DNA of 64,000 nucleotides from an uncultured Myxococcales bacterium (GTDB lineage Bacteria; Myxococcota_A; Polyangia; Fen-1088). The stretch spans positions 1,953-65,952 of the forward strand of contig CAYUFS010000023.1 in assembly GCA_964443975.1 (NCBI GenBank), read 5' to 3'. A program made the translations under genes and the position numbers. Shown here one piece after another: positions 2,364-32,786 of the stretch (within the stretch, counting starts at the first letter, position 1; every line of letters starts with the position of its first letter). A model generated the notes under the pieces. The model saw only the letters and a program-made list of their open reading frames with translations. It did no database searches and was not told where the DNA came from.

Positions 2364-2441
2364 GCCGTCGTCCGTTTCTTTCACGGTTTGGTTAATGCGT
2401 CCACGAACCGTTTTTCGCTGCACACGTAAGAGGAGAGTTGA

Positions 2442-3491: not shown

Positions 3492-3498
3492 AAAGGCG

Positions 3499-3523: not shown

Positions 3524-3675
3524 CGAGACCCCCCGGGGAGGGATCCGTGCCCGGATCTGCTCGTCGGGCGGCGTCTCCGGCGGGCTGAGCCCGCCTCCGA
3601 TCCGCTGGAAACCGGGTCGGCGATAGGCTTGTAGAAGTGAGTTTTTCGGGACGATTTTAGAAAGAGACGGACGTT

Positions 3676-4981: not shown

Positions 4982-5138
4982 CATAAAGACACGTCCCCAT
5001 CGTCGGGTTGGCGACCAAGGCAAGGTAGCTCGCGGTGCGTCGCGGTGAGCCGCCTCCTTCGGCCTTCAGTTTTACCCCCGGGCCGCCGAAGACTCTCTCG
5101 GACCGACCTATCCTAAAGGTGTCGGTCGAGGAGACTTC

Positions 5139-5531: not shown

Positions 5532-5564
5532 CGAGGCCGGCGACCGGCCGGTGACCCACCGCGG

Positions 5565-5969: not shown

Positions 5970-6742
5970 GGCGGCCCGCGTTCGCGGCCGCGCTGACGGG
6001 CGGCTTGCTGGCCCCCCTGTGCGCGCACGCCGCCCGGACGAGCGCCGCTGCCGCCGCGACCGCTGGCGATGGGCTCACGGCGCGGCCGTTGCTGCTGTTC
6101 ATCGTGATGAGCGGGGTGGCGCTGGTGCCGTTCGCGCTGCTGATGACCACCTGCTTCGTCAAGGTGGCGGTGGTGCTGTCCATCCTGCGCAGCGCGATCG
6201 GCGTTCCCCAGGTCCCACCGACGCAGGTCATCACCGGGCTGGCGCTGATCCTCACCGCCTACGTGATGGCCCCCACCGCCGAGCGGACCTACGACGCCGT
6301 GAAGCCGGTCATGTCGCTTGGCGCGGGCGCCGATCTCGCCAGCGCCGCGACGGTGGATGCCCTTCAGCAAGCCGGTGCGCGCGCCAGCGAGCCCTTGCGC
6401 GCGTTCCTGTTGAAGCAGGCAGACCCGCGCGATCGCGCGACGTTTCATGGCCTCGCGCTGCGCATGCGGACGCCTGACCAGCGCGCGACGATCTCGGATC
6501 GCGATCTGATGGTGATCATTCCCGCGTTCGTGACCTCGGAGCTGAAGCGCGCATTCGAGATCGGGTTCTTGCTCTTCATTCCATTCCTCGTGCTCGACCT
6601 GGTCATCTCGAACCTCCTGCTGGCGCTCGGGATGCACATGCTGGCGCCGACGACGGTGTCGCTGCCGTTCAAGCTGCTGCTCTTCGTGCTCGCCGACGGG
6701 TGGCACCTGGTGGCCCGCGGGCTGGTCGAGAGCTACCTGTGA
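5966..6742 (+). CDS. sctR: Type III secretion / flagellar export apparatus protein, SctR/FliP family
   Basis: FALLMTTCFVKVAVVLSILRSAIGVPQVPPTQVITGLALILT is the FliP/YscR family signature, and the 258-aa length fits. Confidence 0.9.
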   Translation: MRRPAFAAALTGGLLAPLCAHAARTSAAAAATAGDGLTARPLLLFIVMSGVALVPFALLMTTCFVKVAVVLSILRSAIGVPQVPPTQVITGLALILTAYVMAPTAERTYDAVKPVMSLGAGADLASAATVDALQQAGARASEPLRAFLLKQADPRDRATFHGLALRMRTPDQRATISDRDLMVIIPAFVTSELKRAFEIGFLLFIPFLVLDLVISNLLLALGMHMLAPTTVSLPFKLLLFVLADGWHLVARGLVESYL

Positions 6743-6746
6743 CGTC

Positions 6747-7028
6747 ATGACCACGGTCGCCACGTCGTCCGAGCTGGTCCTGCGCGCCATCCACGAGGGG
6801 CTGTTACTGGCGCTGCTGGTGTCGGGGCCGCCGCTGCTGGCCAGCCTGCTGGTAGGCTTCGTCGTCGGGATCGTGCAGGCAGCGACGCAGATCCAGGATC
6901 AAGCGCTGGCGTTCGTCCCGAAGCTCGTGGTCGTGGTGGTGACCTTGCTCTCCGTCGGCCCCGTGCTGGGCACGCAGCTGGTCCGGTTCACGCAGGCGCT
7001 GTTGCTCGTCTTCCCTTCCATCAGGTGA
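6747..7028 (+). CDS. sctS: Type III secretion / flagellar export apparatus protein, SctS/FliQ family
   Basis: 93-aa two-TM protein (LLLALLVSGPPLLASLLVGFVVGIVQAATQIQDQALAFVPKL) matching FliQ/YscS. It lies 5 nt after sctR. Confidence 0.85.
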   Translation: MTTVATSSELVLRAIHEGLLLALLVSGPPLLASLLVGFVVGIVQAATQIQDQALAFVPKLVVVVVTLLSVGPVLGTQLVRFTQALLLVFPSIR

Positions 7029-7086
7029 GTGGCGGGCAAATGGGTGGTCGCAAAATGATACTCCGGCCCCTGGGGGCCCGCCGCGC

Positions 7087-7899
7087 GTGATCTCGCCGGG
7101 AGGGGACCGGGAGCGTTGGCTCCTCGCGGTGGGCCTTGGCGCCGCGCGGACGGTGCCGCTTTGCTGGGCCGTCCCCGCGGTCGGCGGGCCGCGCGTCGCG
7201 CCCGAGGTGCGGGCGGGGCTGGGGATCGTGTTGGCCGTCCTCTGCTTGCCGGCGTTGCTCCCCGCGGTGGACACGTCCGTGAGCGCCGCGCCTGGCCCCG
7301 TCGGCTGGACGCTCGTGCTCGCGCGCGAGCTCCTCGTCGGCCTGACCGTCGGCCTCTGCGTTGGGGCGGGCTTTCGCGCCGCCGAGGCGGCGGGGCGGCT
7401 CGCCGATCTCGCCCGCGGCGCCAACCTGGCCGAGGTGTTGTCGCCGATGTCGGACGAGCGCACCAGTCCAACCGGCGATCTCTATCTGTTCGTCGCGGTG
7501 ATCGTGTTCCTCGAGCTGGGTGGGTTGCGAGTGTTCGCGCAAGCGCTCGGGCGGAGCTACGAGGCGGTGCCCGTGGGCGCGTCCTCCGCCCTGTTTCCGG
7601 GCGGCCTGCGGGCCGCCGTGGCGCTAGTCACGGCGGCGGTGGCCAAGCTCATGGAGGCGGCGCTCGGGCTGGCGGCGCCCGTGCTGGTCGCAGCGTTGCT
7701 GGCCGACGCGACGCTGGGCCTGGTGGCGCGCGCCGCACCCCAAATTCCAATCTATTTCGCCGCCATGCCAGCGAAGGCGCTGCTCGGACTCGGCGTGTCG
7801 TTGGTTGGCGTGGGCGCCATCGAGGCCGTGTTCGCCGGGGGCTTTCACGCCTGGGCCGCGATGTTCGACCAGGCCGTCGCCGCATGGCGGCCGAGATAG
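7087..7899 (+). CDS. sctT: Type III secretion / flagellar export apparatus protein, SctT/FliR family
   Basis: 270-aa polytopic membrane protein in the conserved R-S-T order. It probably starts at a GTG. The hydrophobic profile and length match FliR/YscT. Confidence 0.8.
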   Translation: MISPGGDRERWLLAVGLGAARTVPLCWAVPAVGGPRVAPEVRAGLGIVLAVLCLPALLPAVDTSVSAAPGPVGWTLVLARELLVGLTVGLCVGAGFRAAEAAGRLADLARGANLAEVLSPMSDERTSPTGDLYLFVAVIVFLELGGLRVFAQALGRSYEAVPVGASSALFPGGLRAAVALVTAAVAKLMEAALGLAAPVLVAALLADATLGLVARAAPQIPIYFAAMPAKALLGLGVSLVGVGAIEAVFAGGFHAWAAMFDQAVAAWRPR

Positions 7900-7978
7900 G
7901 CAGCGAGATAACGCCGGTGTTCTTCGACGCCCCGAACGGCGATCTTCAGGCCCGGGCGGCTCCTGTCGAAGGACAGCT

Positions 7979-9029
7979 CATGCCGATGGGGTGGCGCAGG
8001 CCCGCTGCTGGGCTGAGAGTCGGGGTGGCGATCGTCTTGATCGCCGGGGTGGTGGCGCGCGCGCGCGGCGCTTCGGCGGCGGGGGCGGCGACCGACCCCG
8101 ACGCCTTCGACGATCCCAAGCTCGCGCGCGAGCCGGCGCCGTTTGCCCCGTCCGCCCCCGCCGCGAAGGCGCCGGAGCCAACGGTCGCGCCAGGGCCCGT
8201 CCCGACGCCTGCTCCGCCGAAGGTCGCCCCTCCTGCGTCCGCGCCGGTCCAGGCGCTCTCGCCGTCGCCTCCCGCCCCGTTGCCTGCGCCGCCGCCGCCG
8301 CCGAAGCTCGCCACGCCGGCGCCAGGTCCCGTCGCCGTGCCAGCGTCGGGTGTCGCGCCGCCGCCGCCTGTCTCGGCGTCTCCGGTGGACAGACCGGCCG
8401 CGCCGTCGCCGCAACCCCAACCGCTTCCGGCCGCGCCGCCGCGGCCGTCGCCGGCCGCAAGCGGTTCCCCGTCAGCCGACCTCAGCGTGAAGGCGCCCCC
8501 TCCCGCAGAGCCAGCTCCCACCGGAGCCTGGCCTTACGCGCCTCGGCTGAAGCTCAGCTATCGACGGTTCTCGTTTTCACGTATGCCCGCGACGGGGACC
8601 TCGTCCACCGCGGCGCCCGTCCCCGAGTCGTTCGAGAGCTTCGGCCTCGATTTCTATCCCATGTCCTGGTACCTGCGCGTCGGTTTCTCGTCGCAGTTCG
8701 GCTGGGAGAGCGGACAGTTTCAACGAACCGGCGATTACTTTCTGGCCGAGTCGGCGTCCGCGGGATTTCAGATTCCAGGCCGATTCACGCCGTTCGCGGA
8801 GGCGTTCGCAGGCGCGGGCTACATGCGCCGCTTCCAGAACGGCGCCACGTCGCCCTCCGCGTACTGGCAGACGGGCGTGGACGCGGGGGTCGAGATCTAT
8901 TTCGCGAAACGCGCCTACGGCAGCGTCGCTCTCGGGTATCTCCACCCGGGTAACCTGTTCCTGCAACAGAAGAACCTGTCGTCGGTGAACGCCGATACGT
9001 GGTCCCTGAAGGTCGGCATCGGCATCTGA
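7979..9029 (+). CDS. Hypothetical membrane-anchored proline-rich protein with a beta-rich C-terminal domain
   Basis: ATG at 7979 gives an N-terminal TM helix (MPMGWRRPAAGLRVGVAIVLIAGVVA), then about 170 aa of Pro/Ala repeats (PAPPKVAPPASAP...), then a C-terminal ~170-aa domain of alternating hydrophobic residues (FGLDFYPMSWYLRVGFSSQFGW...SLKVGIGI). The part of ORF 7116..9029 upstream of 7979 is Arg-rich and presumably not translated. Confidence 0.55.
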
Positions 9030-9107
9030 CCGGGGCTCGCCCGGCTCGCCAGCCCCCAGGATCTGGGGCAATCTCCTCCCAACGTGGCGACGAAGGGGCA
9101 GGTTTGA

Positions 9108-10241
9108 TTGGCGCGGTCGGGCGCTGAACCCACCGAACGACCCACGCCGCGGCGGTTGCTGAAGGCGCGGCAGGGGGGACACGTGCCCATCAGCCGCGAT
9201 CTCTCCTCGGCGATTGTCTTCCTGGCGCTCGGTGGACTGCTGTGGGGTGGGGCGGCGACCGGGGTGGGCCGCCTGCTGGGCTTGTTCCGGGCGACGTTCG
9301 CCGCGCCCTTCGGGTCCTCGATGGCGACGGCGGCGCTGGCCGCGCGCGCGTTCGATGTCGCGATGGCGCTGGTGCTTCCTCCGGTCGTCGTGGCGTGCGC
9401 CGGCGCGCTGCTGGTAGGGGCGCTGCAAACGCGGGGGTTGTTTGCCTGGCGGGCCGTCGCGACCGACGTGACGCGTTTGTCGCCGGCCGTCGGAATGGCA
9501 CGCGTCTTCAGCCCGAAGACGGCCGGCGACATCGCGCAGGGCGTGGTGAAGGTCTTCGTCGTGGCGGCGGCGGCGGTCGTGGGTGTCGAAGCATTGCTGC
9601 GCGGGCTACCGGCTCTGGTCGGGGCGGCGCCCGGCGCGGTGCTGGCCGTGCTCGGTCTCGAGGCGCGGGATCTGGCGATCCGCGGGGCCATGGCGTTCCT
9701 GGCGCTGGGCATTCTCGATGGGGTGCTCGGGCACCGGCGGCACCGCCGGTCGTTGCTGATGACTCGCGAGGAGGTGAAGCGGGACTTGAAGGAGGCCGAG
9801 GGCGACCTGCGCCACAAAGCCGAGCGCCAGCGTCTGCACCGGCAGCTCGGCGAGCGACGACTGAACGAGGATGTCCGAAGCGCGACCGCTGTCGTGGTGA
9901 ACCCCGAGCACATCGCCGTGGCCATCCGCTACGACCGTGATGGGGATCAGGCGCCGGTGGTGCTGGCGAAGGGCGAGCGGCTGCTCGCCGAACGTATCAA
10001 GCAGGTCGCCCGCGAGGCAGGCGTGCCGATCTATCGCGACGTCGCGCTGGCGCGCGCGCTTCACCAGCTCGACGAGGGTGAGGAAATCCCCCAGCCCCTT
10101 TACGAGTCCGTCGCCGAGCTGCTGCGCATGCTGTGGGAGCTCGAGCGCAAGCCGGCGACTTCACCCGCCGTCGCGGTCACCGCGACGGTCACTGATCGAC
10201 CGGACGGCCCGCCCCCGGCAAGCGGCGGACGACGCGTCTGA
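9108..10241 (+). CDS. sctU: Type III secretion / flagellar export switch protein, SctU/FlhB family
   Basis: FlhB-like N-terminus (EPTERPTPRRLLKARQGGHVPISRDLSSAIVFLA) and an autocleavage site NPEHIAVAIRY (the NPTH-type motif). Probable TTG start. Confidence 0.88.
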   Translation: MARSGAEPTERPTPRRLLKARQGGHVPISRDLSSAIVFLALGGLLWGGAATGVGRLLGLFRATFAAPFGSSMATAALAARAFDVAMALVLPPVVVACAGALLVGALQTRGLFAWRAVATDVTRLSPAVGMARVFSPKTAGDIAQGVVKVFVVAAAAVVGVEALLRGLPALVGAAPGAVLAVLGLEARDLAIRGAMAFLALGILDGVLGHRRHRRSLLMTREEVKRDLKEAEGDLRHKAERQRLHRQLGERRLNEDVRSATAVVVNPEHIAVAIRYDRDGDQAPVVLAKGERLLAERIKQVAREAGVPIYRDVALARALHQLDEGEEIPQPLYESVAELLRMLWELERKPATSPAVAVTATVTDRPDGPPPASGGRRV

Positions 10242-10271
10242 GCCGACGACGACGACGAGGAGCGAAGTCAC

Positions 10272-21379: not shown

Positions 21380-22360
21380 ATGCGCAGGCACGTGGACTGG
21401 CGTTGGGTCGTGGGTGGGTTGAGCGCCGCGATGACTGCTGCGGGGGCGCCCTCGGCGGCAGAAGCGTGCGGCGGCCCACCGCCGTATATGCCGATCGGGC
21501 TGCCGCGACCGGCCGCGACCGCTGTTTCCACCGCGACGTCGATCGTCGTGATCTGGCAGGGCCAGCCCGCCGGTCTCGCCTTGCAGGCCGCGGGGCAGGA
21601 CGTGCCACTCGCCGAGGCCTTCGGTCTCGGTCTGGGCGCCGAGGGATTCAACCGAGCGCTTTCGTTCTGGCAAGTCCGTCCTGCGACGGCCAGCGGGCTG
21701 CTAGCACCGAGCGCGGAGCACGTGCTGACGGCGACGTACCAGGGCAGCACTGTCGAGGTCACGCGCTTCACGACCGCCGCCGGCTACGACAAGGCCGAGG
21801 GCGTCGCGCCGATCGTGCGCGCCCTTCAGCTCTGGCGTGTCCGCTACCCCCTGTCGGACATCGGCTCGGGGAACTGCGTGTTCGCCGAGTATCACGGCTT
21901 CCTGACCGTCGACTACGATCCCGCCACGGTCCCGAACACCCCGCCGGCATCGGTGGTGCAAACGTTCCGCCTGGCCCCGAAGACCGGCGGCGGTGCGCAG
22001 GTGTTCAACTACGTCGGCGACGCGCCGTTCGCCGGTCTGGCGCCGAGCGGCGACCACCCGCTGCCGCTCGGTCTCTGGCAGCCCGAGCTCGATCCGACGC
22101 TCGAGTATTGCCTGACCATCTCGGCCTCCGGCGACGGCGACATTGCGCGTCTGCGGCTCGAAAGCCAGCCGGTTTGCGCGACGGTGGCGCAGCTCTCGGC
22201 GTCGGGCGCGCCACCCTCGCCCGTGATCAGCGGCGCTGGCGGCGCAGGCGGAAGCGGCGGTTGTAGCGTGGCCGGAGATGCCGGTGCCGTTCCGGCGCTG
22301 GTCGTGGCATCGCTCGCGTTCGTGCGCGCGCTCCGGCGTCGGCCCCGATCAGCGTCGTGA
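21380..22360 (+). CDS. Secreted protein with a MYXO-CTERM-type C-terminal sorting signal
   Basis: The start at the internal Met gives signal peptide MRRHVDWRWVVGGLSAAMTAAGAPSAAEA. The C-terminus GAGGAGGSGGCSVAGDAGAVPALVVASLAFVRALRRRPRSAS has a Gly-rich stretch, a Cys, a TM helix and a basic tail. Confidence 0.6.
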   Translation: MRRHVDWRWVVGGLSAAMTAAGAPSAAEACGGPPPYMPIGLPRPAATAVSTATSIVVIWQGQPAGLALQAAGQDVPLAEAFGLGLGAEGFNRALSFWQVRPATASGLLAPSAEHVLTATYQGSTVEVTRFTTAAGYDKAEGVAPIVRALQLWRVRYPLSDIGSGNCVFAEYHGFLTVDYDPATVPNTPPASVVQTFRLAPKTGGGAQVFNYVGDAPFAGLAPSGDHPLPLGLWQPELDPTLEYCLTISASGDGDIARLRLESQPVCATVAQLSASGAPPSPVISGAGGAGGSGGCSVAGDAGAVPALVVASLAFVRALRRRPRSAS

Positions 22361-22373
22361 CGGAGCTGCCGCT

Positions 22374-22961
22374 GTGATTCTTGGCTCGACGCGCGAGGGC
22401 CGCTTCGGCGACAAGCCCGCCCACTGGATCCTCGGCGAGGCGAGCCGGCAGCCCGGAGTCGTGGCCGAGCTGCTCGACCTGCGCGACTTCCCGCTGCCGT
22501 TCTTCGACCGGCCCCAGTCACCCATCCGCGAGGGCGGCGTCTACCGCGACCCCGCCGTCACCCGCTGGGCCGCGCAGATCGCCCCGGCCGACGCCTACAT
22601 CGTCGTCGGGCCCGAGTACAACCACGGCTACTCGGCGGTGCTCAAGAACGCGCTCGATCACCTCTATCCCGAGTGGGTGCGCAAGCCGGTCGGGTTCGTG
22701 AGCTACGGCAACGCCGGCGGGGCGCGCGCCGTCGAGCAGCTTCGCCTCGTCGCCGTCGAGCTGCAGATGTGGCCGATCAGGACGGCCCTCCACCTCCCCC
22801 TCGAGGTCTACCTCGCGGCGATGAAGGAGCCCGTGCCGCCCAACCCGCAGGTCTTCGAGCCGCTCAAGAAGGGCATCGGCGGCGACCGCGTCGCGCAATT
22901 CTTCGGCGATCTGCTCTGGGCGGCGCGCGCGCTCAAGGCCGCGCGTCACGCCGCGACGTGA
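22374..22961 (+). CDS. NAD(P)H-dependent FMN reductase family protein
   Basis: VILGSTREGRFGDKPAHWI...VVGPEYNHGYSAVLKNALDHL...VGFVSYGNAGG, a flavodoxin-like FMN-reductase pattern. GTG start chosen to avoid an 80-nt overlap with the upstream gene. Confidence 0.75.
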   Translation: MILGSTREGRFGDKPAHWILGEASRQPGVVAELLDLRDFPLPFFDRPQSPIREGGVYRDPAVTRWAAQIAPADAYIVVGPEYNHGYSAVLKNALDHLYPEWVRKPVGFVSYGNAGGARAVEQLRLVAVELQMWPIRTALHLPLEVYLAAMKEPVPPNPQVFEPLKKGIGGDRVAQFFGDLLWAARALKAARHAAT

Positions 22962-22988
22962 CAGCCTGGGGGGCGCGCCTCGCCCGCC

Positions 22989-24098
22989 TCAGCAGAGCAT
23001 GAGGCGGGCGAGCAGGCGCTCGAGGCGCAGCGCCAGCCAGGTGTCGGAGCTCGTGTGCGCGTGGTCCATCGCCGCGAACAGGTGCGTCTGCTCAAGATCG
23101 AGGCGCTCGGGGTGGCGCTCGAGCAGGCGCACGAAGTGGCCCACCGCACGACGCTGGTCGAAGCGGGTCCGCGCGACCACGGCGTGCTTGACCGTCGCGT
23201 GCAGGGCGAAGCGTCCTTCGAGGGGCTCCTGGACGAGATGCCACCGCCGCAAGAGGGCCAGCGCCCGCGAAGCGGCTACGGTGGCCTTGCCGCTGCCGCC
23301 GGTGCTCGCGCCCGCCAGTGATGCCAGCGAGGCGACGTCGATGTGGTCGCCTTGCATGTGGGCGAGGACCGCCAGCAACCGGCGCCCCGTCGCCCCGAGG
23401 CGGGGCCAGACCCAGGCCACGAGGAGTCGAAGCTCCGGGAGATCGTCCTCGTGGGCGATCACCGAGACCTCACCCACGCCGCTCTTCACCAGCCAACCAC
23501 CGAGCGCTGTGACGGACACGGCGCCGCTGCCGACGAGCGCGTTGCTGATGTCGAGGGCGAGCGGGTTCCAGCGCAGGAGCGCCGTCAGCGCCGCGACGGC
23601 CGGGAAGGGACTGCGGCCGCTCGTCACGAGCGGGGGGACCACCGGGAACACGGACACGCCCGCGAGCAGGCACCGGCGCGCCGTCAGCACCCAGGTGACC
23701 GGCAGTCCCGCCAGCGCGTTCAGAAACCGGGCCATGGCCCGATCGTCCTCGTGGTTGTCGAGCACGATGAGCGTGCGCCCGCGTCGTTCGAGGCCCCGGC
23801 GCAGCTCGGTGACACGGCGGTCGCGCTCCTGGAACCCGCCGAGCGGGATCTTCATGCGAATCGCCAGCATGTCGAGCAACGTCAGCGCGTCCCACGCGCC
23901 GACGCGGAACCACTCGATGCCGCCGGGGTGCTCGGCGCGCACGCGATGCCCCAGGGCAGCCGCCAGGGTCGACTTGCCACCGCCGCCCGGACCGACGAGC
24001 GCCAGCCGCGGCGTCAGGCCGGCGCGACACACTGCCACCAGCGTCCTCAGCTCCGCCGTGCGGCCACGAAACGGTTCGGGTCTAGGAGGGAACGCCAC
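22989..24098 (-). CDS. P-loop NTPase of the NB-ARC/STAND-like type with no recognisable effector domain
   Basis: Walker A LALVGPGGGGKSTLAAALG and Walker B TLIVLDNHED in 369 aa. It is the last gene of an ECF-sigma operon. Confidence 0.6.
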   Translation of the reverse strand: MAFPPRPEPFRGRTAELRTLVAVCRAGLTPRLALVGPGGGGKSTLAAALGHRVRAEHPGGIEWFRVGAWDALTLLDMLAIRMKIPLGGFQERDRRVTELRRGLERRGRTLIVLDNHEDDRAMARFLNALAGLPVTWVLTARRCLLAGVSVFPVVPPLVTSGRSPFPAVAALTALLRWNPLALDISNALVGSGAVSVTALGGWLVKSGVGEVSVIAHEDDLPELRLLVAWVWPRLGATGRRLLAVLAHMQGDHIDVASLASLAGASTGGSGKATVAASRALALLRRWHLVQEPLEGRFALHATVKHAVVARTRFDQRRAVGHFVRLLERHPERLDLEQTHLFAAMDHAHTSSDTWLALRLERLLARLMLC

Positions 24099-24134
24099 GC
24101 AAGGGATGTATCACGTTTGCGCGGGCGGCGGGGC

Positions 24135-24926
24135 TCACGGCGCGCCGTCCAGGTGGGCGATCTCGGGGGCGCTCAGGGCCCGCTGATAGATCCGGATCTC
24201 GTCGACCGCGCCCTGAAAGGGCCAGATCAAGCCGTCGACGGCTTGCTCGATGCCGATGTGCAGGATGGTGTTTCCGGGCATGATCACCGATGGAATCGAC
24301 GTCTGGGACTGCATCACGGCGCCCTGGTAAAGGGACATCGTGAGGGCCCGGCTGTCGACGACCGCCGTCACATGCATCCACAGGTCGGGCTGGATCTGGC
24401 AGCACAGCAGCGCGCTGTAGTGTCCGGTGGAATCCCTGAAGCTGAATTCGAGCTCGGACGTCATGTTGCTCGCGGGCCCCTGCAGCTCCCAGCCGCCCGG
24501 GGTGACGACGATGCTCGGATCGCCGTGTGCGCTCGGGACCTCGGTAGTGACGATGCTGGCGAGATCGGTCCCGATGTCGGCCTGGGCGTAACGGACCCAC
24601 GCCGAGACTGTCCAGTCCGCCGTGGCCGCTGGGAAGCTCGGGACGGTCACGTAGTCACCGCGGGTGAGGTAGAGCGCACCGGCGAATTGCCCATCGGCGA
24701 TCCACAGGCCGCCGGTCAGCGCGCCGGCGAGCCCATTTCCCGAGCTGTCGAGCACGGTGGCGCCCTGGCCGTCATCGAACCGCCAGTGGGCGACGAGGCC
24801 GACGTCGATTGTGGGCGCATCGACGGCGTCGAGCGTGCCGGCGCCGCACGCGGTCGCGAGCGCGCACGTCACCGCGAGCGCGAGCGCTGGCAGCCCGGGC
24901 ACGGCGGCACGCGACGACCCCATCAA
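24135..24926 (-). CDS. LamG-like (concanavalin A-like jellyroll) lipoprotein
   Basis: Lipobox LATACG, then LVAHWRFDDGQGATVLDSSGNGLAGAL...GDYVTVPS...WTVSAWV, which is typical of the LamG-like jellyroll family. ATGA overlap with the upstream gene. Confidence 0.7.
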   Translation of the reverse strand: MMGSSRAAVPGLPALALAVTCALATACGAGTLDAVDAPTIDVGLVAHWRFDDGQGATVLDSSGNGLAGALTGGLWIADGQFAGALYLTRGDYVTVPSFPAATADWTVSAWVRYAQADIGTDLASIVTTEVPSAHGDPSIVVTPGGWELQGPASNMTSELEFSFRDSTGHYSALLCCQIQPDLWMHVTAVVDSRALTMSLYQGAVMQSQTSIPSVIMPGNTILHIGIEQAVDGLIWPFQGAVDEIRIYQRALSAPEIAHLDGAP

Positions 24927-26086
24927 AATCGCGCCTTCATCGTCACGGTGGCGGAGAGCCCGGGCCGACCCGTTCGGCCGCCGTCCAGCCCCGCGATCCG
25001 CACCTGTGGTTCGGGGAAGAGAAGGAATGGGCCGCCCTCTGCCTCGAGGGCCAGCCGCGGGGTCAGCGTCATTCCTGCTCCGGCCGAGAGGCTGACCGCC
25101 GCCGACACCCGGCTCGCCGTCCGGGCCGTGTAAGGGGCGGTCGCGGTTCCCTGCGCGCGCACGTCGTGGATGCCCACGCCTATCGCGAAGATCGGATGCA
25201 CCCGGGTGCTCGTCGGCGTGACGACGAGCTCACCCTCTGCCAAGCTCTCGGTGAACGTGGCGCTGCCGTTCATCCCGTCCAGCCGCGCGCCCGTTCCGAA
25301 GCCAGCCACCACGATTCGCAACGAGGACCACGGGGAAAGCTCGTGAGCGGCGCGCAGCACCGGGGCGACAGTCGTGCCGAGTCCCTGCAAGCTCTTGAAG
25401 GCGACGACGCCGAGCGACAGCGCCCAACCATAGGAATCGACCGAGGCCACGGCCGTCGCCGGAGGCAGCGTGTCCGCTGGCGTCGAGGTCGTGGCCGTCC
25501 CGGTTGCCGCTGCCGTCGGGCTCGCGGGTGCGGTCGCGGTCGTCGCGGGGGTGGCTGGCTCCGTAGCCGGGGCGAGGCTGGCGGGAGCCGTCTGTCCGTC
25601 GGCCATCGCGGCGGGCCGGGCGACCAGGAAGTCGAACATGCGCGCGCGTAGAAAATCGACAGCCTTCACCGCCAGCACGACCGACGCGCGATCGCCGGCT
25701 TGGTTCTCGACAGCCACGTGACCGAGCACGGTCTTGCCGGTGAGTCGATCGGTGAACCACACGTCGAAGGCGTGGGGGTCACCCCCGTTCACGAACGCCA
25801 CCGTCGCGACGGCGGATGCCGCGCGCGCGGCCTCCTCCATCTGCGCCAACGGCGTGCCCGAGGCGGAGCCCGCCACCACGGTGACCTCGAAACCGACGGA
25901 CGCCGCCTCGCCCTTGAAGCGACTCAGGGCCTCGGTGACCGCGGGATCGCCTCCCGGGGGCGCTACCACCGCGATCACGGGAATGGGCGCGCGCGCCGCG
26001 GGTGCCCGAGTCGCTGGTATTCGCGCCGCGGGTGCCGTGGCGGCTGCGAGCATCGCGGCCCACAACGCGGGACCGAGGGCGTTCAC
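24923..26086 (-). CDS. Secreted protein with a Thr/Ala/Pro-rich linker and a C-terminal beta-rich domain ending in Phe (outer-membrane-protein-like)
   Basis: A GTG at 26086 gives signal peptide VNALGPALWAAMLAAATAPAA and forms a GTGA overlap with the anti-sigma stop. The C-terminus ...LSATVTMKARF ends in an aromatic residue as outer-membrane barrels do. The ORF-track form (start 26551) is Arg-rich upstream. Confidence 0.5.
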   Translation of the reverse strand: MNALGPALWAAMLAAATAPAARIPATRAPAARAPIPVIAVVAPPGGDPAVTEALSRFKGEAASVGFEVTVVAGSASGTPLAQMEEAARAASAVATVAFVNGGDPHAFDVWFTDRLTGKTVLGHVAVENQAGDRASVVLAVKAVDFLRARMFDFLVARPAAMADGQTAPASLAPATEPATPATTATAPASPTAAATGTATTSTPADTLPPATAVASVDSYGWALSLGVVAFKSLQGLGTTVAPVLRAAHELSPWSSLRIVVAGFGTGARLDGMNGSATFTESLAEGELVVTPTSTRVHPIFAIGVGIHDVRAQGTATAPYTARTASRVSAAVSLSAGAGMTLTPRLALEAEGGPFLLFPEPQVRIAGLDGGRTGRPGLSATVTMKARF

Positions 26087-27456
26087 GGCCCCGTGTGGTC
26101 GACGAGCACCTGGGTCGCTTCGTGGACATAAACCCCGCGGGGATAGGACGCAAGGTACCGCTTCGCGACGTCGCGGGCCGCGGAGAGTTGCTGGTCTCGC
26201 CGCAACAGGATCAACTGGCGGCCGAGGGCCTCCTCGGCGTAGGAGCCATGGGTCGCCTCGCGCAGGTAGCGATCGTACCAGGTCAGCGCCTCGCGGCCGT
26301 CCCCGTTCCCGGTCTCGCTGAGGCGCCCGAGGAAGAAGGCTGCGTCTCGCGCGCGCTCGCCCGACGCAAACCGCGTGCGCAGCGCCATCAGGGACCGCCG
26401 CGCGAGCTCGCGGCGGTGGGTGTAGCGGGCGGCGTCCGCCAGCGCGGCGAGGTTCTGCTCGGTCTCGAAGCCGAGGCACGCGTCGACTCCCCTCCGCGTG
26501 GCCTGGTCGACGATGGCGTCGAAATCTCCGTGGGTCAAGAGCTGCGTCCACGCCGGATGCGCGGGCAGCGACCGCGCCACATGATGGCTCTGGGTTCTCC
26601 GGTTCTTGTCGTCACGAAGCGCCGGCGCGGCGACGAAGGCCGCGCGCGTCGAGGGAGAAGGCGCGGGCGCCTCTGCGGGTGCGCTTGCCCCGACCTCTCG
26701 CGCCAGCGGACGACCCAAATCGTCCAGGAATACGGATGCGCCCGCCGCGACCATCCGGGGCGCCCGATCGCCCGGGCCGACAAGCGCCACCTCGCCCGTG
26801 TGCATCGTGAGCTGGAAGCGGTGGCTCGCTGCCTGCCAACCGAGCGCGAACGACGTGCCCTTGACATGGACCACGAACGGTCCCGCCGCGAACGTCCATG
26901 TCGCGCCCGGTCGATGTCGCACGTCGACCTCGACGAAGCCATCGAGCAGCCGCACGGCCGAGCCGGTGGCCGCAAGCGAACCCACCGTCACGCGGGTCTC
27001 CGGGCGCAGCCACACCCGCGAACCATCCGTGAAGCGAACCGTGACCGGGCCCTTCGACGACGACACCTCGGCGCCGGTTGCACCGGGGTCGGCGTGGCCG
27101 TCGCCGTCGCCGCTGACGCTGAACTGCAGCGGCGCGGGCGGCGTGGTCCGGGTGAGGCGCCACGCGACGGGAATCAGGATGGCGGTGACGGCGAACGCCA
27201 CGGCCAGGCGCGGGCCGCTTCGGAGCCACAGCCTCGCCCACCACGCGGGCACAGGCTCCTCGGGGGCCGCTTGCCCGGCGAGAAGGCTCCGCTGCAGGCG
27301 CTGCCAGCCCATCGCGCGTTGCCAGGGCGCCAGGGTCGCTGCCGGAAATTGCCGCGCCACCTCGGCGAATGCTTCGAGGCGATCTCGCCGATCGGCGGGG
27401 AGCTCATCGCCGCGAACGTCGCCAGCTCGGTCGAGTGGTTGCGAATCGCGCGTCAT
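26083..27456 (-). CDS. Anti-sigma factor, FecR-like with a single TM helix
   Basis: The start at the internal Met (MTRDSQPLDRAG...) overlaps the ECF sigma stop. TM helix LAVAFAVTAILIPVAW, then a FecR-like periplasmic region (VRLLDGFVEVDVRHRPGATWTF..GPFVVHVKGTSFAL). Confidence 0.7.
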   Translation of the reverse strand: MTRDSQPLDRAGDVRGDELPADRRDRLEAFAEVARQFPAATLAPWQRAMGWQRLQRSLLAGQAAPEEPVPAWWARLWLRSGPRLAVAFAVTAILIPVAWRLTRTTPPAPLQFSVSGDGDGHADPGATGAEVSSSKGPVTVRFTDGSRVWLRPETRVTVGSLAATGSAVRLLDGFVEVDVRHRPGATWTFAAGPFVVHVKGTSFALGWQAASHRFQLTMHTGEVALVGPGDRAPRMVAAGASVFLDDLGRPLAREVGASAPAEAPAPSPSTRAAFVAAPALRDDKNRRTQSHHVARSLPAHPAWTQLLTHGDFDAIVDQATRRGVDACLGFETEQNLAALADAARYTHRRELARRSLMALRTRFASGERARDAAFFLGRLSETGNGDGREALTWYDRYLREATHGSYAEEALGRQLILLRRDQQLSAARDVAKRYLASYPRGVYVHEATQVLVDHTGP

Positions 27457-28058
27457 CGAATGGGGCTCCCCTTCGGCCGCAAGAGCCGGTTCAGGCGTGG
27501 ATCGCCCTCGATTCCTGCTTCGACGAGGCGGACCCCGCGCTTCAGCCAGCGTTTTGTGGTGCTGAGCGAGATCCCGAGCCCGTCGGCGATCTCGGCAAGT
27601 TCCTGGTCCTCGATGTAGCGCAGCACGAACACCGCCCGGACCTTCTTGGGCATCTTGTCGAGGATCAACTGGACGCGCGCCAGCAGATCGCGCACCTCGG
27701 GATTGCTCGAGACGACCTCCGGACCGTCGCTGTGCAACAGGGCTTCCTGGCTCCGGCGACGGGATTGCGCGCGCCGGATTTCCCAGCGTACGACGCGAAT
27801 GGTGATCGAGTAGATGAAGCTCCGCAGGGCGCTGAGATCGCGGAGGCCAATGACGCGATGAAAGACGCGAAGGAACACATCCTGGAGGAGATCGTCGAAG
27901 TCGTGCCCGGGACCGAGCGCACGCCGCAGAACTCCATTCACCATGGGTGCGTACAGGTCCCACACCTTCCGTTGGGCCCATGGCTCGCGCGCCACGACGG
28001 CGCGCGCGAGCGCTTCGTCGGTACCGTCCGGCCGTCCGTCGTCGGTTACAGCACCCAT
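27453..28058 (-). CDS. ECF (group IV) RNA polymerase sigma factor
   Basis: Region 2 (DLLQDVFLRVFHRV) and a region 4 helix-turn-helix (LAEIADGLGISLSTTKRWLKRG). The start is taken at the internal Met 28058; the ORF-track start is 28157. Confidence 0.85.
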   Translation of the reverse strand: MGAVTDDGRPDGTDEALARAVVAREPWAQRKVWDLYAPMVNGVLRRALGPGHDFDDLLQDVFLRVFHRVIGLRDLSALRSFIYSITIRVVRWEIRRAQSRRRSQEALLHSDGPEVVSSNPEVRDLLARVQLILDKMPKKVRAVFVLRYIEDQELAEIADGLGISLSTTKRWLKRGVRLVEAGIEGDPRLNRLLRPKGSPIR

Positions 28059-28202
28059 CGAGTCACGAGACCCGTCGGCCGAGTCGTCGCAAACCATGAG
28101 GATAGCGAGGCTTCGGGCGGGTTCCAACAACAAAGATGCTGTTGCGGCGTGATTCACCCTGCCGTCCGCTCTTCCCGGGCGCTTGCCGGGCTGTTGCCGC
28201 GC

Positions 28203-29357
28203 TCAATCAAGACAACCCACGCGCTTCGTATCGAGGACGATGTCATCGTAGTACACGTCGAACGCGTACGTCGCCGGGTGCCAAGCGTAGTAGCCGAACC
28301 CGAACGCGGCGAATCCGCCCACCAGCCCGGTGGTCGCGCCGCCGAACGTGAACGCCTTTTGTGAGAAGTCGGCGACGCCGTCGACGTAGACGGTGGCCTG
28401 GTCGGGCGCGTCGTCGAACTCCCATTCGAGGCAAAACCACCTTCCGGTGGGGACGTGGCCGCCCGAGTGATAGTCCTCGCCGTTCGCCGGCGGAACGAGG
28501 TCGACGTAGGTCAGCTGCCAGGCGAGGGGCGCCGCGCTCGCGACCTCGAGGTATTTGTATTGCGGGAAGCCCACCGTGCCGGCGTACACGTATTCGGTGT
28601 GATTCGTGGGCGGCATCGGCGTGATCATGAAGTACGCGCGCCCGAAATGGTGACCCGCGAGGGCCGCGGGCGGCTTCTTGGTGATGATGAAGTCATAGCT
28701 GACGGCGTTCGGGTTCGCGTGGAAGTGCGCGGCGAACTTGCCGTGGCCCACCATGCCCGCTTGCGAAACGACGGCAGGGGGGGGCTGGCCCCCGTTGGTC
28801 TTGACGTCCCAGACCGCGGGATCGATCGCGCCGCTCTCGAAATCCTCGCAAAACAGGCCCTTGCATCCGGTGGTTCCGCCGTCCGGGGTCGCCCCGCCGG
28901 GCGAGCCGGCGTCCGCCGGGGACGCCGCCCCGCCCGTCGCTCCGCCCGCGGCTCCTGCACCGGCGTTCCCGCCCCCGCCTGCGCTCGCCGGTCCACCGGC
29001 AGCGCCACCCCCGGTGCTGGCTGGGTCGCTGGCGCCGGCTGTTCCGCCCGTGCCTGGGCGACCCCCCGTCGCGGCGACGGCGCCGCCGGTCCCCACTTCC
29101 GGCTCGACGCCACCCCCGCCGCCCGACCCGCTCGCGCCGCCGGTTGCTGTCACGGTGAGGCCCCCGGTGCCCTGGCGCCCCCCCGAGCCCGCGGGCGCGC
29201 CGCCCCCTGTCCCTCCGCCACTCGACGCGTCGAGCGAGCCGCCAGTGCCGCCGCCACCACCACCCGCCGTCTGCCGGGACGCGCACGCGGCCGGCCCCAC
29301 CAACGCCAAGAGCATGGGAACGAGCGTGAGGGCCGTCGGGCGCGCATGGAGCCGCAT
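28203..29357 (-). CDS. Lipoprotein with a Gly-rich linker and an unknown C-terminal domain
   Basis: Lipobox LVGPAAC, about 140 aa of GGTGG repeats, then a C-terminal domain starting GCKGLFCEDFESGAIDPAVWDV with aromatic-rich beta-type sequence. Confidence 0.6.
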   Translation of the reverse strand: MRLHARPTALTLVPMLLALVGPAACASRQTAGGGGGGTGGSLDASSGGGTGGGAPAGSGGRQGTGGLTVTATGGASGSGGGGGVEPEVGTGGAVAATGGRPGTGGTAGASDPASTGGGAAGGPASAGGGGNAGAGAAGGATGGAASPADAGSPGGATPDGGTTGCKGLFCEDFESGAIDPAVWDVKTNGGQPPPAVVSQAGMVGHGKFAAHFHANPNAVSYDFIITKKPPAALAGHHFGRAYFMITPMPPTNHTEYVYAGTVGFPQYKYLEVASAAPLAWQLTYVDLVPPANGEDYHSGGHVPTGRWFCLEWEFDDAPDQATVYVDGVADFSQKAFTFGGATTGLVGGFAAFGFGYYAWHPATYAFDVYYDDIVLDTKRVGCLD

Positions 29358-29364
29358 CCTCGCG

Positions 29365-30723
29365 TCAGGCGAGCATGGAGGTGATGACCCCCGACTGGCC
29401 GCCCATGCTGGTGGTGACGCCCACCGCCTTGGCCAGCGTGTTCAACATGGTGGCGGTCGAGGCGCTGCCCGCGTCGACGTATTGACCCTTCTTCAAGAAG
29501 CCGCTCGCGGTTCCGGCCATGAGGAACGGCAACGGCCCGAAGCCGTGGTCGGGGCCAGTCGACAGCTGATTCGTGTTGACGGCGACCCCTTGATCGAGGA
29601 GCGGGCCCGTCGCCGTCTGCACCGCCGAGAGCTGGTCGAGAAAGTACTTGAAGTGGTTGATCTGAATCCGGTCGATGGCCTGGCATAGCGTGTACGAGTT
29701 GGGGAGCGTCCGGTGCGAGGCCGTGTGGAACTGCACGCTGGTCCCGTTGACCGTGTACACATGGTCGTCCTCTCGGTCTCCCACCTGCAACACGGCGACG
29801 CGTGTGTATCCCGACGACAGCGCGAACACCATCAGATCCATGTGGAGGGTCTGGATGAGCTCGTGGTTTTCGCCTGCGTAGGGCGACGCATCGACGGTGG
29901 TCATCTGGGAAATCTTGTCCGCCGACAGCGTGGCGTTGGTGATCTTGATCTCCATGTCGCGAATGGTCGAAAAGTGCTGGTCCAGTCGCTGCTGGTCGTC
30001 GGCGGTGAGCTCGGGGCGCGCGCGCAGCGCGGTGATTTGCGCGCGCAGGAGGTCGTTGACGCTCTTGCGCCGGAGCGCGAGCGGATCCGCGGCGCCGCCC
30101 GTGGTGGTGCCGAGGGTGCCGATCATTCTCTGATACGCCTTCAGGGGCGAATCGATCGCGGGTCGCTGCTGCCCGCCCGCGATGTAGGAGATATAGGACG
30201 GCACGTTGAAGCCGGAGCCCCCCGCCGAGTACATGCCCGCGTGCAGGAACAGCGGATCGACGCCGGGGGGATTGATGGCCTTGGCGATCACGGTGTCGAC
30301 GGACACGCTCGAAGACACGGCCTGGTTCGAGTTGCCGCTGACCGTCGGGGTGCCGGTGAGGATCTGCGCGCACGCCGAGGCGTGGTTGCAGCCCGTCGCC
30401 GACGCGGAATGGGACACGCCGCGGACGAGCAGCAGCCGGTCCGCGTACACCGCGAGCTCGCCCGTCGCGCGCGTCGGGTTGTCGGCCAGCATGCCCGCCT
30501 GGGTCAGGGCGCCGAGCTTCGTGGGCCACCAGGCCTCGGCCTCGCCGGTCTTGGCCTGCACCACGCCGTTGGCGCTGCAGACGATCCCGAGGAACGGCGG
30601 CGTGGCAGCCCACGCCCTCCTGGGCAGAGAGGCCTCGAGGATCGGCAGGCCGAGGGTCACGGCCCCGGCTCCCACGAGGAACTGGCGGCGACCGAACCGG
30701 CGCTGCTCGCGAATGGGGTTCAT
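29365..30723 (-). CDS. DUF1552-family protein with a twin-arginine signal
   Basis: An internal Met gives MNPIREQRRFGRRQFLVGAGAVTLGLPILEASLPRRAWA (RRQFL Tat motif). The family assignment comes from length and the conserved partner gene. The ORF-track form extends to 31212 through Arg-rich sequence. Confidence 0.65.
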   Translation of the reverse strand: MNPIREQRRFGRRQFLVGAGAVTLGLPILEASLPRRAWAATPPFLGIVCSANGVVQAKTGEAEAWWPTKLGALTQAGMLADNPTRATGELAVYADRLLLVRGVSHSASATGCNHASACAQILTGTPTVSGNSNQAVSSSVSVDTVIAKAINPPGVDPLFLHAGMYSAGGSGFNVPSYISYIAGGQQRPAIDSPLKAYQRMIGTLGTTTGGAADPLALRRKSVNDLLRAQITALRARPELTADDQQRLDQHFSTIRDMEIKITNATLSADKISQMTTVDASPYAGENHELIQTLHMDLMVFALSSGYTRVAVLQVGDREDDHVYTVNGTSVQFHTASHRTLPNSYTLCQAIDRIQINHFKYFLDQLSAVQTATGPLLDQGVAVNTNQLSTGPDHGFGPLPFLMAGTASGFLKKGQYVDAGSASTATMLNTLAKAVGVTTSMGGQSGVITSMLA

Positions 30724-32594
30724 CAGGGCGCCTCCACGCGGGTCACGAACGCGTCGTCCGACACCAAGGCCACCATCAGATCGACGCTGGAGATATTCTG
30801 GCCGAGCGATCGTTGCGCAGCGGCGGCCGCCGCGGTCAGGTCGCCCGCGCGCGGGATGCGCGAATAGAGATCGGCGGTCCAGCTGGTGGCGTAGCATGAG
30901 TGGAGTTGCTGGCTCTCCGCGAGCGCGTTGCTGAAGTCCACTTCGTTCGTGAACGACTTCGTTCCGTCGGTGAAGGGATAGCTGCCCGATGTGTCGATGG
31001 GCTGGCCGTTCTCCGTCGTCCGATAGACTCCCAGGCCGTTGAAGTTCTCGAAGGCGAATCCGGCGGGGTTGATGAACACGCCGTGACAGCTGGCGCCGCA
31101 CGTCCCGGGGCCGGTTATGCCGTTCACGATCTGGCGATTGGTCTGGTTCGTTCCGATCGGCGAGGGGATCGTCGGCAGGACGACCCCGGGCGGGGTCGAC
31201 ATCTCCTTGCACAGGAGGCGGCGGTTGATGTACACGCCCCGGTGGATCGAGTCCTGGGTGCTGCCGTCGTGGCCGTAGTAGGCGAGAAATCCGAGGCGCG
31301 TCAGGACGCCGGGGCGCTGTGTAGGATCGAGCTGAACCTGGGTCCAGGTGTTCGCCGAAAAGCTGCCGGTGAGACCGTAAAGGCTGGCGACGGTGCTGTT
31401 CACGAACGTGACCGGCGACGTGAAGATGTCTCGCAGGGTGCCGTTCTGGGCGAAGAGGTACTGGAGGAACTGCTGCGTCTCGGTGTGTAGCAGGGGACCC
31501 ACGGCGGCCGTGAAGGCGGGCGCGACCGCGGGATCCTTCTCGAGCGTGTCGTACTGGCCGAGCCCGAAGAACTGGAAATAGAAGCGATCCACCGCCGACT
31601 TCCCCGCGGCCGTGGCGATCAAGCGCCGCGCGTGCGCGGCGATCGCGTCTGTCCCAGCCAGCGCCGCCTGATCGGCGGCAGCCGCCAGCGTCGCATCGGG
31701 CAGGGAGTTCGTGAGCGCGTAGGACAGATTCGCCGCGATCTCGTAGTCGGTGAGGCGGGCGCGCCCCTGGACGGCGGTGTCGCCGAAGCCCGTTCGATAA
31801 AGAAAATAGGGCGATTGCAGCACGGCCTCGAGGGTGACCTTCACTCCCGCGGCAAACGTCGTCAGGCCTGTCGTCAGGCTCGGAGCCTGGTTGAACAACG
31901 TCAGGTACGCTTGCGTCTCGTCCGAGGTCAGGGGTCGCCGGAACGCGCGCCGCCCGAAGGATTGAATGAAGGACGTGGCCTTACCGGTGGCGTCGGTGGG
32001 GGCGTTGCTCGGCACCAGACGGGCGATGGCGGTGGCGTCGCCGGCGACTTGCCCGGCGAGGCTCTCCGCCGCGGATTGCAGATCGTCGTGCAAGGCCTGA
32101 TTCACGAACAGCGAGTCCGCCTCGTTGTCGAGCCGCACGACGGCGTCGGCGGTCGGCAAGGTCAAAGGCCCCGGATTCGGCAGCATCAGGAGGTCACGCA
32201 CGCTGTTCGCCCATTGGAGCTGACTGAGGCGCGAGATGGTCGGTGTGGCGACGATGGCCGCCACGCCCGGGTCGCTCCCCCCCGAGCCGGTCGCGGCTCC
32301 CGTCCCGCCGATCGCATTGCCCGTTCCGCCGCCCGTCACGCTACCGGTCCCGCCGCCGGTTCCGGGACCAGCGCCACCCGAGGCTGCGGACGTCGCGTTG
32401 CCGCCGGACCCCGGCGAAGCGCCGCCGCCAGTCCCCGAGGTCGGTGTGGCGCCGCCGCTTGCGGACGTGGCGCTCTGGCCACCTGATTGCCCGCCCCCGT
32501 CCGGGGCCGCTTGACCGCTGCCAACGACGCCCGTGCAAGCCCCCATCCCGACGAGGCAGGCCATGAAGCAGCAGGTTCCAGCGCGAGATTTCAC
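30723..32594 (-). CDS. DUF1592/DUF1588/DUF1585-type large secreted protein, partner of DUF1552
   Basis: About 620 aa with an N-terminal hydrophobic Cys-containing signal, a Gly/Ser linker and a C-terminal region (HGVFINPAGFAFENFNGLGVYR). Its stop shares a base with the DUF1552 ATG. The GTG start at 32594 is uncertain; the alternative ATG is 32564. Confidence 0.6.
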   Translation of the reverse strand: MKSRAGTCCFMACLVGMGACTGVVGSGQAAPDGGGQSGGQSATSASGGATPTSGTGGGASPGSGGNATSAASGGAGPGTGGGTGSVTGGGTGNAIGGTGAATGSGGSDPGVAAIVATPTISRLSQLQWANSVRDLLMLPNPGPLTLPTADAVVRLDNEADSLFVNQALHDDLQSAAESLAGQVAGDATAIARLVPSNAPTDATGKATSFIQSFGRRAFRRPLTSDETQAYLTLFNQAPSLTTGLTTFAAGVKVTLEAVLQSPYFLYRTGFGDTAVQGRARLTDYEIAANLSYALTNSLPDATLAAAADQAALAGTDAIAAHARRLIATAAGKSAVDRFYFQFFGLGQYDTLEKDPAVAPAFTAAVGPLLHTETQQFLQYLFAQNGTLRDIFTSPVTFVNSTVASLYGLTGSFSANTWTQVQLDPTQRPGVLTRLGFLAYYGHDGSTQDSIHRGVYINRRLLCKEMSTPPGVVLPTIPSPIGTNQTNRQIVNGITGPGTCGASCHGVFINPAGFAFENFNGLGVYRTTENGQPIDTSGSYPFTDGTKSFTNEVDFSNALAESQQLHSCYATSWTADLYSRIPRAGDLTAAAAAAQRSLGQNISSVDLMVALVSDDAFVTRVEAP

Positions 32595-32786
32595 CAAAAG
32601 GGTCCTTTCACGCCCGCTGGGCTGGCGGCAGGTGGCCAGATCGGCGGGTAAGAAGTTCGGCCTCCCGCAGTGCCGGCAGCGGGGCAGAAGGTCCACCCGC
32701 TTTGCAGAATCTCCCCATTTGAACGGGGTGCACATGCACCTACACGCAGGCCGAGGGGGAGCGGCCCGGTGCGGGCCGCATCCGCC

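Follow-up and report, generated by a model that had tools for sequence, protein, structure and literature searches.

To our knowledge, signalling by extracytoplasmic function (ECF) sigma factors and FecR anti-sigma factors is understood almost entirely through TonB-dependent transducers, and no role has been assigned to bare, conserved NB-ARC proteins that lack effector and sensor domains. A 64,000-nt stretch of DNA from an uncultured Myxococcales bacterium (the window, meaning the whole stretch that was analyzed) places representatives of both side by side: genes for an ECF sigma factor, a FecR-type anti-sigma factor, a predicted outer-membrane barrel protein (here protein C) and a LamG lipoprotein are followed on the minus strand by the gene of a stand-alone NTPase with an NB-ARC fold. 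An earlier note, made from the sequence alone, had described this as a five-gene ECF operon ending in the NTPase, and had suggested a surface-sensing or defence-related signalling unit. The reading towards which we lean, with modest confidence, is a 4+1 arrangement, in which a translationally coupled four-gene envelope-signalling cassette stands beside an independently promoted NB-ARC gene and is joined to it by a facultative, non-random link.

On the envelope side, the locus can be compared with FecI-FecR-FecA. In both, a sigma factor is translationally coupled to a single-pass FecR anti-sigma factor, their genes are accompanied by one for an outer-membrane barrel protein whose N-terminal domain is periplasmic, and a signal is presumed to be relayed from the outer membrane to the periplasmic part of FecR. 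The barrel modelled here is, however, a small 8-strand one of the OmpA/OmpX kind, whereas FecA is a 22-strand TonB-dependent receptor with an STN domain; searches of Pfam and NCBIfam found no TonB_dep_Rec, Plug or STN domain in any cassette protein. The cassette also differs in the TPR-like end of its anti-sigma factor, in the addition of a LamG or lyase lipoprotein and in having no iron-transport context. A second comparison is with the Dma proteins, in which the anti-sigma factor is fused to an outer-membrane barrel and which are reported as restricted to Bacteroidota and paired with ECF21 (PMC10927553). The likeness is one of architecture, with no sequence similarity claimed: an ECF sigma factor, an anti-sigma factor linked to an outer-membrane barrel across the periplasm through a long disordered region, and lipoproteins as partners or targets. 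Dma is a single polypeptide, whereas the barrel of the cassette is encoded by a separate, coupled gene and has its own periplasmic domain and linker; anti-sigma factor and barrel occupy separate open reading frames (ORFs), in different frames, in the window and are likewise separate in all 15 related loci. ECF267 is described as having a FecR-like, TPR-bearing anti-sigma factor and, as a conserved neighbour, a protein kinase (PMC7826278); we liken the sigma factor to this group by description only, and the kinase neighbour is not seen here.

On the cytoplasmic side, the NTPase shares with Apaf-1, CED-4, plant NLR proteins and MalT/AfsR-like regulators the same nucleotide-binding, helical and winged-helix fold, together with the P-loop, TARR, NPLAL and an MHD-like His. 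It differs from them in having neither an N-terminal effector or DNA-binding domain nor a C-terminal repeat sensor, every family member being only 356-369 aa long, and in a Walker B motif that reads VLDN with an invariant Asn. Each component falls in a known superfamily; the cassette architecture, the bare conserved NB-ARC family and the recurrent association of the two appear to be undescribed in the literature searched. We agree with the earlier note that an ECF cassette paired with a STAND-like NTPase is not a standard layout.

The four-gene cassette and its variable last gene

As the window has a G+C content of about 70%, ORF lists are noisy, and gene frames were assigned from a frame plot of G+C at the third codon position and from start-codon analysis. 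Both support the five co-oriented minus-strand genes that had been proposed. Four of the five predicted proteins, including the exact sigma factor, are found verbatim in public collections, where the NTPase is called with a shorter 349-aa start. The overlapping stop and start codons that the earlier note saw throughout hold for the three junctions between the first four genes: the FecR ATG overlaps the sigma stop (ATGA), the protein C GTG overlaps the FecR stop (GTGA), and the LamG ATG overlaps the protein C stop by 1 nt (TGATG). They do not extend to the NTPase, whose GTG follows the LamG stop after a non-overlapping gap of 36 nt; an in-frame TGA stands 15 nt ahead of this GTG.

The calls made earlier for the first four proteins were all borne out. 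The sigma factor (27453..28058, minus strand; 201 aa) consists of sigma-2 and sigma-4 domains only, as in ECF (group 4) sigma-70 factors, and scores above cut-off for Sigma70_r2 (39.6 bits) and Sigma70_r4_2 (48.2 bits) in Pfam and for TIGR02937 in NCBIfam (75.9 against a cut-off of 42.9). The gene directly after it (26083..27456, minus strand; 457 aa) encodes an anti-sigma factor of FecR type. Its Pfam FecR domain (PF04773, residues 134-223, 37.4 bits against a cut-off of 24) lies on the periplasmic side of a single hydrophobic, transmembrane segment at about residues 80-102, which in hydropathy analysis is preceded by a cytoplasmic N-terminus of about 80 aa; this N-terminus matches no profile and, by analogy, is the putative sigma-binding part. 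The C-terminus is helical, with a weak YbgF/TPR match at residues 351-442, and distant homologues match TPR_16.

Protein C (24923..26086, minus strand; 387 aa), which the earlier note had described as a secreted protein with an outer-membrane-like C-terminal Phe, matched nothing in Pfam or NCBIfam. It is laid out as a signal peptide, a periplasmic alpha/beta domain (residues ~37-156), a disordered Pro/Ala/Thr linker (160-217) and a barrel (221-386) that ends in the terminal Phe. An AlphaFold model based on a 19-sequence alignment (A1) is confident for both domains (predicted local-distance difference test, pLDDT, ~85-90), and the top Foldseek matches of its 8-strand barrel are OmpA, Ail, OmpX and NspA, with E values of 4e-9 to 2e-6 and target-normalised TM-scores of 0.64-0.78. 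The terminal Phe is kept in most of alignment A1, and the N-terminal signal-like segment is weak by hydropathy. The model thus places protein C among the small outer-membrane beta-barrels of the OmpA-TM/OmpX/Ail class. The fourth gene (24135..24923, minus strand; 262 aa) encodes a LamG, or concanavalin-A-like, jellyroll lipoprotein, with an N-terminal hydrophobic segment followed by Cys in a lipobox-like context (...LATAC) and a Laminin_G_3 domain (PF13385) at residues 88-256 (70.8 bits against a cut-off of 27.6). A comparison with PDB sequences showed a resemblance to the C-terminal domain of 5ho0/5hon, an extracellular arabinanase (E 3e-7).

How far the cassette is conserved was surveyed by neighbourhood look-ups, by scanning a genome collection and by tblastn with every protein of the window. 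Protein C has few homologues (37 clusters), and in all 15 loci recovered through it the sigma, FecR and protein C genes are contiguous. LamG is the fourth gene in six distinct, closer loci from Polyangia (seven records: L007 with its duplicate L008, L009 and L012-L015), and the overlapping junctions are also kept in these LamG-containing orthologous cassettes. We refer to the cassette of the window and its orthologues as type A. The NTPase follows the type-A cassette in none of the five distinct loci with readable downstream DNA (L007/L008, L009, L013, L014 and L015); the sixth, L012, ends too early to show its presence or absence. What is conserved is the four-gene cassette, and not the five-gene operon ending in the NTPase.

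These loci argue against the alternative that the five genes are a true operon and the NTPase a built-in cytoplasmic part of the signalling unit, acting for example in nucleotide-dependent sigma release or anti-sigma turnover. In favour of such an operon, the NTPase gene of the window is co-oriented with the cassette, separated from it by only 36 nt and not preceded by a terminator. Together with the evidence set out below on both sides, we consider this explanation unlikely.

The fourth position of the cassette varies. In the distant cassettes L016 (8930-10885), L017 (8933-10918) and L021 (8894-10876) it is taken by a PL11 rhamnogalacturonan-lyase lipoprotein (RGL11_C, E ~1e-190), which suggests that the cassette family has to do with plant or algal polysaccharides. 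In clade C, one of the groups in which a cassette adjoins the NTPase (see below), it is a 515-aa orphan lipoprotein with no similarity to LamG, X384 (a lipoprotein encoded upstream of the sigma gene), Pfam or PDB sequences, and in type B and in L018-L020 there is no fourth gene. Since this gene can be a LamG protein, a PL11 lyase, an orphan lipoprotein or absent, it appears to be an exchangeable, polysaccharide-related module for ligand or output, and its variability suggests a ligand module.

The NB-ARC NTPase and its putative promoter

The NTPase gene (22989..24098, minus strand) encodes 369 aa, and its GTG start at 24098 is confirmed by the N-termini of orthologues (M/V-AFPPRP...). In Pfam the window protein stays below threshold for NB-ARC (19.7 against 23.5), for nSTAND1 (22.5 against 27.1) and for AAA_16, and several orthologues carry precomputed matches to PF00931 or PF20703. 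Fold and motifs are those of an NB-ARC/STAND P-loop NTPase. The model (pLDDT 90; predicted TM-score, pTM, 0.83) comprises a nucleotide-binding domain, a helical domain, a winged helix and a short helical tail, and its best Foldseek matches are the NB-ARC modules of Apaf-1, CED-4 and the tomato NRC proteins (NRC1/2/3), with MalT lower in the list. In the family alignment (A2) the invariant motifs are the P-loop GxGGxGKS, VLDNHED, TARR with the sensor-I Arg, RWNPLAL with its GxP-like NPLAL, and LHAT, the equivalent of MHD with an MHD-like His. The second acidic position of Walker B, which is normally acidic in STAND NTPases, is occupied by Asn in the invariant VLDNHED (window residues 112-119), and this might mean slow or partner-dependent hydrolysis. 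No effector, sensor, DNA-binding or repeat domain was found by Pfam or in the model, the 369 aa being accounted for by an NB-ARC module and three helices; the earlier description of a Walker A/B NTPase without an effector domain is upheld.

The family is populous and isolated. It contains more than 100 clusters of uniform length (356-369 aa) with a mean column identity of 71%, and an exhaustive profile search returned only 40 library proteins at <=1e-30, mostly fragments of the family itself. Scores are ~430 bits within the family vs ~110 bits to its next relatives, which are ~850-aa HTH_31-NB-ARC-TPR, SARP/BTAD-NB-ARC-TPR and Trypsin-NB-ARC-HEAT proteins. Sequence comparison thus places its closest kin among regulator-type STANDs. 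The NTPase is a bare, minimal NB-ARC switch protein that is conserved across a Polyangia lineage.

This background bears on the suggestion of a defence unit, in which the STAND-like NTPase would be an antiphage or conflict sensor tied to envelope sensing. The NB-ARC/STAND fold itself, the presence of Avs3 far down the list of fold matches and the weak, sub-threshold nSTAND1 matches are compatible with it, but the NTPase has no effector or sensor domain, its nearest outgroups are transcription-regulator architectures (HTH- or SARP-NB-ARC-TPR), and a family so highly conserved, so uniform in length and so abundant, with housekeeping-type neighbours such as transporters and metabolic genes, is unlike patchy, fast-evolving defence genes. 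We therefore regard a defence role as very improbable. A PADLOC scan of the five proteins and X384 gave no defence signature, with no significant match to a model of an antiphage STAND (Avs, bNACHT) and only P-loop matches (best E 0.006), and the defence reading was dropped.

To describe the region in front of the NTPase, upstream sequences were aligned at the start codon (59 unique sequences). The motif TGnTAnnnn occurs 5-8 nt before the start (mode 6) in 31 of the 59 unique orthologue upstream regions, vs 1-2 of 59 in the control windows. Its hexamers include TACACA, TACATC, TAGACA and TAGAGT, and by eye many of the remaining upstream regions have TAGAGT, TAAGAT, TAGGAT or TATCAT at the equivalent position. 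In the window, the corresponding extended -10-like element, TGATACATC (24105..24113, minus strand), lies in the gap between LamG and the NTPase and ends 6 nt before the NTPase GTG; judged by its sequence and position, it is probably an extended -10 promoter giving a leaderless mRNA. A generic scan found no sigma-70 consensus sites, and terminator-like sites were no commoner than in shuffled sequence. That the window retains this conserved leaderless-type element speaks further against the NTPase being the fifth gene of a single operon.

The neighbourhoods of the NTPase point the same way. The cassette is absent from all six neighbourhoods of NTPase orthologues at 65-84% identity, which contain no ECF, FecR or LamG genes. 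In 80 further metagenome loci the upstream neighbours form about 40 unrelated clusters, and the cassette is missing from about 38 of about 40 upstream contexts; some 85% of NTPase loci have unrelated neighbours, a further count against the five-gene operon. The earlier note had named an NTPase promoter of its own, and an NTPase unlinked in related genomes, as what would speak against its reading; this is largely what we find at this locus, given TGnTAnnnn and the many cassette-free contexts, with the reservation that three cassette types still adjoin the NTPase. A reading of the NTPase as simply unlinked, drawn from the six neighbourhoods, was revised after the scan of 80 metagenome loci brought types B and C to light.

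At its 3' end the NTPase gene converges with an FMN-reductase gene (22278-22961, plus strand), and a perfect hairpin (GTCACG-N6-CGTGAC, 22945-22962) lies at the meeting point of the two. It lacks a T-run, and might act as a terminator in both directions.

Cassettes adjoining the NTPase

We searched for cassettes around the NTPase with iterated hidden Markov models (HMMs) of the sigma factor, FecR and protein C. A co-oriented cassette lies directly upstream of the NTPase in three types: type A, in the window; type B (L022, L024, L026 and L047), which has no lipoprotein; and type C (L067-L070 and L083), with the 515-aa lipoprotein. Mutual identities of the three are ~40% for the sigma factor, ~34% for FecR and ~25-35% for protein C. 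Since they are as far apart from one another as each is from cassettes that are not linked to an NTPase, they are best regarded as paralogues and not as one inherited arrangement. No other sigma, FecR or protein C matches were found with the HMMs in the 572 kb of DNA selected for the NTPase.

Could these adjacencies be a coincidence or a genomic hotspot, with abundant ECF cassettes landing in a plastic region upstream of the NTPase and no functional relation between the two? The flanks of the NTPase are extremely variable even at ~80% protein identity, cassette B is polymorphic beside it (see below), Sorangium genomes carry 70-82 ECF sigma factors each (PMC7826278), and pairs of DUF1592 and DUF1552 genes are found near the NTPase in the unrelated loci L027, L064 and L083, which indicates that abundant paralogous families do land close by. 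Against this, three mutually distant cassette types occupy an equal position and orientation relative to the NTPase, and the rest of the 572 kb of flanking DNA holds none. By our own estimate, which assumes 20-100 cassettes per ~9,000-gene genome, chance would give 0.05-0.25 cassette contexts among about 40, vs the 3 observed. In addition, in clade C 4-10 nt separate the lipoprotein stop from the NTPase start (GTG or TTG), the NTPase has ~8 more residues at its N-terminus and the -10 motif is absent; the loss of a separate promoter and the fusion of the junction would be unexpected for a neutral neighbour. Coincidence is, on balance, doubtful.

Some of these observations also speak for the five-gene operon: clade C has the five-part layout again, its junction measuring 4-10 nt and lacking a promoter motif of its own, a four-part version is seen in type B, and the adjacency is enriched over background. 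In clade C, the junction sequences make the NTPase appear captured into the operon and truly coupled. A CMD-family gene lies directly upstream of the NTPase in L004 (700-1146) and in L023; in L024 the same CMD gene (100-540) is 5.4 kb from the NTPase, with a response-regulator/EAL gene and cassette B in between. This is an insertion/deletion polymorphism at the 5' flank of the NTPase, and it follows that a cassette can be gained or lost while the NTPase and its promoter stay as they are, which is hard to square with an obligate operon. When the window was compared for synteny with its nearest NTPase loci (L004-L006 and L022-L026), nothing but the NTPase itself matched, so a shared insertion site is not directly demonstrable for the window. 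Protein C is also cut to ~217 aa in three type-B loci (L022:1722-2375, L024:5289-5942 and L047:2-730) while the NTPase is intact, again contrary to what the five-gene operon would predict; in L026 it is of full length, with 365 aa. The truncated form keeps the periplasmic domain without the barrel, and could be either decay or a soluble variant.

We therefore read the adjacency of NTPase and cassette as neither required nor random, and as a facultative functional association rather than that of a dedicated fifth subunit. Whether the NTPase has any functional link with this class of cassette is, in our judgement, about evenly balanced, and we consider it improbable that this particular operon has the NTPase as an integral fifth subunit.

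Cassette promoter, adjoining trio and a proposed relay

A gap of 145 nt separates the sigma gene from the lipoprotein gene upstream of it, and in this gap lies the promoter-like element TTGGAAC-N16-TATCCT (28099..28127, minus strand). It is the sole match in the window to TTGGAAC-N14-19-TANNNT, with 0.02 expected, and L007 and L013 have the same TTGGAAC-N16-TAnnnT arrangement 5' of their orthologous sigma genes. On this basis the element is probably the promoter of the cassette; its TTGGAAC...TATCCT motif looks sigma-70-like and not ECF-like. In L007, L013 and L014 the sigma start is separated from the putative promoter by a long leader, in which an element resembling GGGCGTCACTGCGGGAT is conserved; the shorter leader of the window lacks it.

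Upstream of the cassette in the window is a trio of minus-strand genes (28203-32735). The first (30723..32735) encodes a DUF1592-type PSD/PSCyt protein (Pfam PSD3, PSD5, PSD4, PSCyt3 and PSD2), the second a DUF1552 (HXXSHH) protein (longest ORF 29365..31212; Pfam HXXSHH, E 1.4e-50) and the third the lipoprotein X384 (28203..29357). The longest DUF1552 ORF runs ~490 nt into the DUF1592 gene and its start is probably mis-called; orthologues have ~455-465 aa and the Pfam match sets in at residue 210, which makes a true start near 30.7 kb probable. X384 has a lipobox, a Gly-rich linker and a conserved C-terminal domain of ~220 aa without family assignment, and matched nothing in Pfam or among PDB sequences. 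Its orthologues (66-78% identity) adjoin the cassette in L007/L008, L009, L012 and L015. By tblastn, orthologues of the trio (66-79% identity) adjoin the orthologous cassette in every locus with enough flank, lying on its upstream side in the window and in L007, L012 and L015, and on its downstream side in L009. This synteny makes the trio the likely best candidate for a partner or regulon of the cassette. A second TTGGAAC-N14-19-TANNNT site was not found in the window, which leaves both the trio and the NTPase without motif evidence as sigma targets.

Elsewhere in the window, judged by N-terminal sequences alone, there is an rpsM-rpsK-rpsD-rpoA-rplQ-like cluster at 869-4284 (plus strand) and, at ~5100-10250 (plus strand), a series of small membrane proteins that look like the set for a type III or flagellar export apparatus.

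Several points weigh against the 4+1 reading with its facultative link. The chance estimate hinges on the number of cassette copies per genome and on the independence of the upstream contexts. In a neighbour-joining tree of the NTPase, clade C is monophyletic, while another clade holds the window, type B and loci without the link; because the window and type-B NTPases fall in one clade, the association events number two or three, and there may have been two independent ones, not three. The NTPase promoter is deduced from sequence, and the motif could instead be a binding site for a regulator. No terminator separates LamG from the NTPase, so co-transcription is possible. The assignment of the trio as a regulon draws on synteny, with no shared promoter motif found.

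On the 4+1 reading, the following relay can be proposed. It builds on what the analysis shows of gene structure, folds, synteny statistics and a conserved promoter-like motif; the contacts between its proteins, its ligand, its regulon and the kind of link with the NTPase are inferred, the mechanism of the cassette from topology and by analogy to FecIRA signalling and the Dma proteins. Genes 1-4 would be transcribed as one translationally coupled unit from the promoter in the 145-nt gap 5' of sigma. The LamG lipoprotein would sense or bind an envelope or extracellular ligand, probably a glycan, and the small barrel protein C would relay the signal through its periplasmic N-terminal domain to the periplasmic FecR/TPR part of the anti-sigma factor. 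The sigma factor, held by the cytoplasmic N-terminus of the anti-sigma factor, would then be released and turn on its targets, most plausibly the adjacent DUF1592-DUF1552-lipoprotein trio. The NTPase gene of the window would have an extended -10 promoter to itself, the message being probably leaderless and read-through from the cassette possible, and its product would be an autonomous cytoplasmic protein able to work with this class of cassette, whichever paralogue is present.

An extension of this idea, which we put forward as speculative and rather unlikely, is that an entire family of envelope-spanning, TonB-independent ECF cassettes in Polyangia shares the NTPase as a cytoplasmic switch acting in trans. 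If true, one NTPase serving many paralogous cassettes would explain why it is fused into the operons of different paralogues in different lineages and yet usually stands alone with a promoter of its own, and ECF sigma signalling would gain a STAND step that depends on nucleotide. The recurrent facultative link to an ECF cassette offers a concrete, testable hypothesis for one bare NB-ARC family. For annotation, the locus illustrates that adjacency in a single genome over-states operon membership. In the cassette itself, a small OmpA-like barrel and an exchangeable lipoprotein would take the place of the TonB-dependent transducer, as a split counterpart of the Dma proteins of Bacteroidota, and this would give large-genome soil predators and degraders a compact, modular means of sensing envelope or polysaccharide cues.

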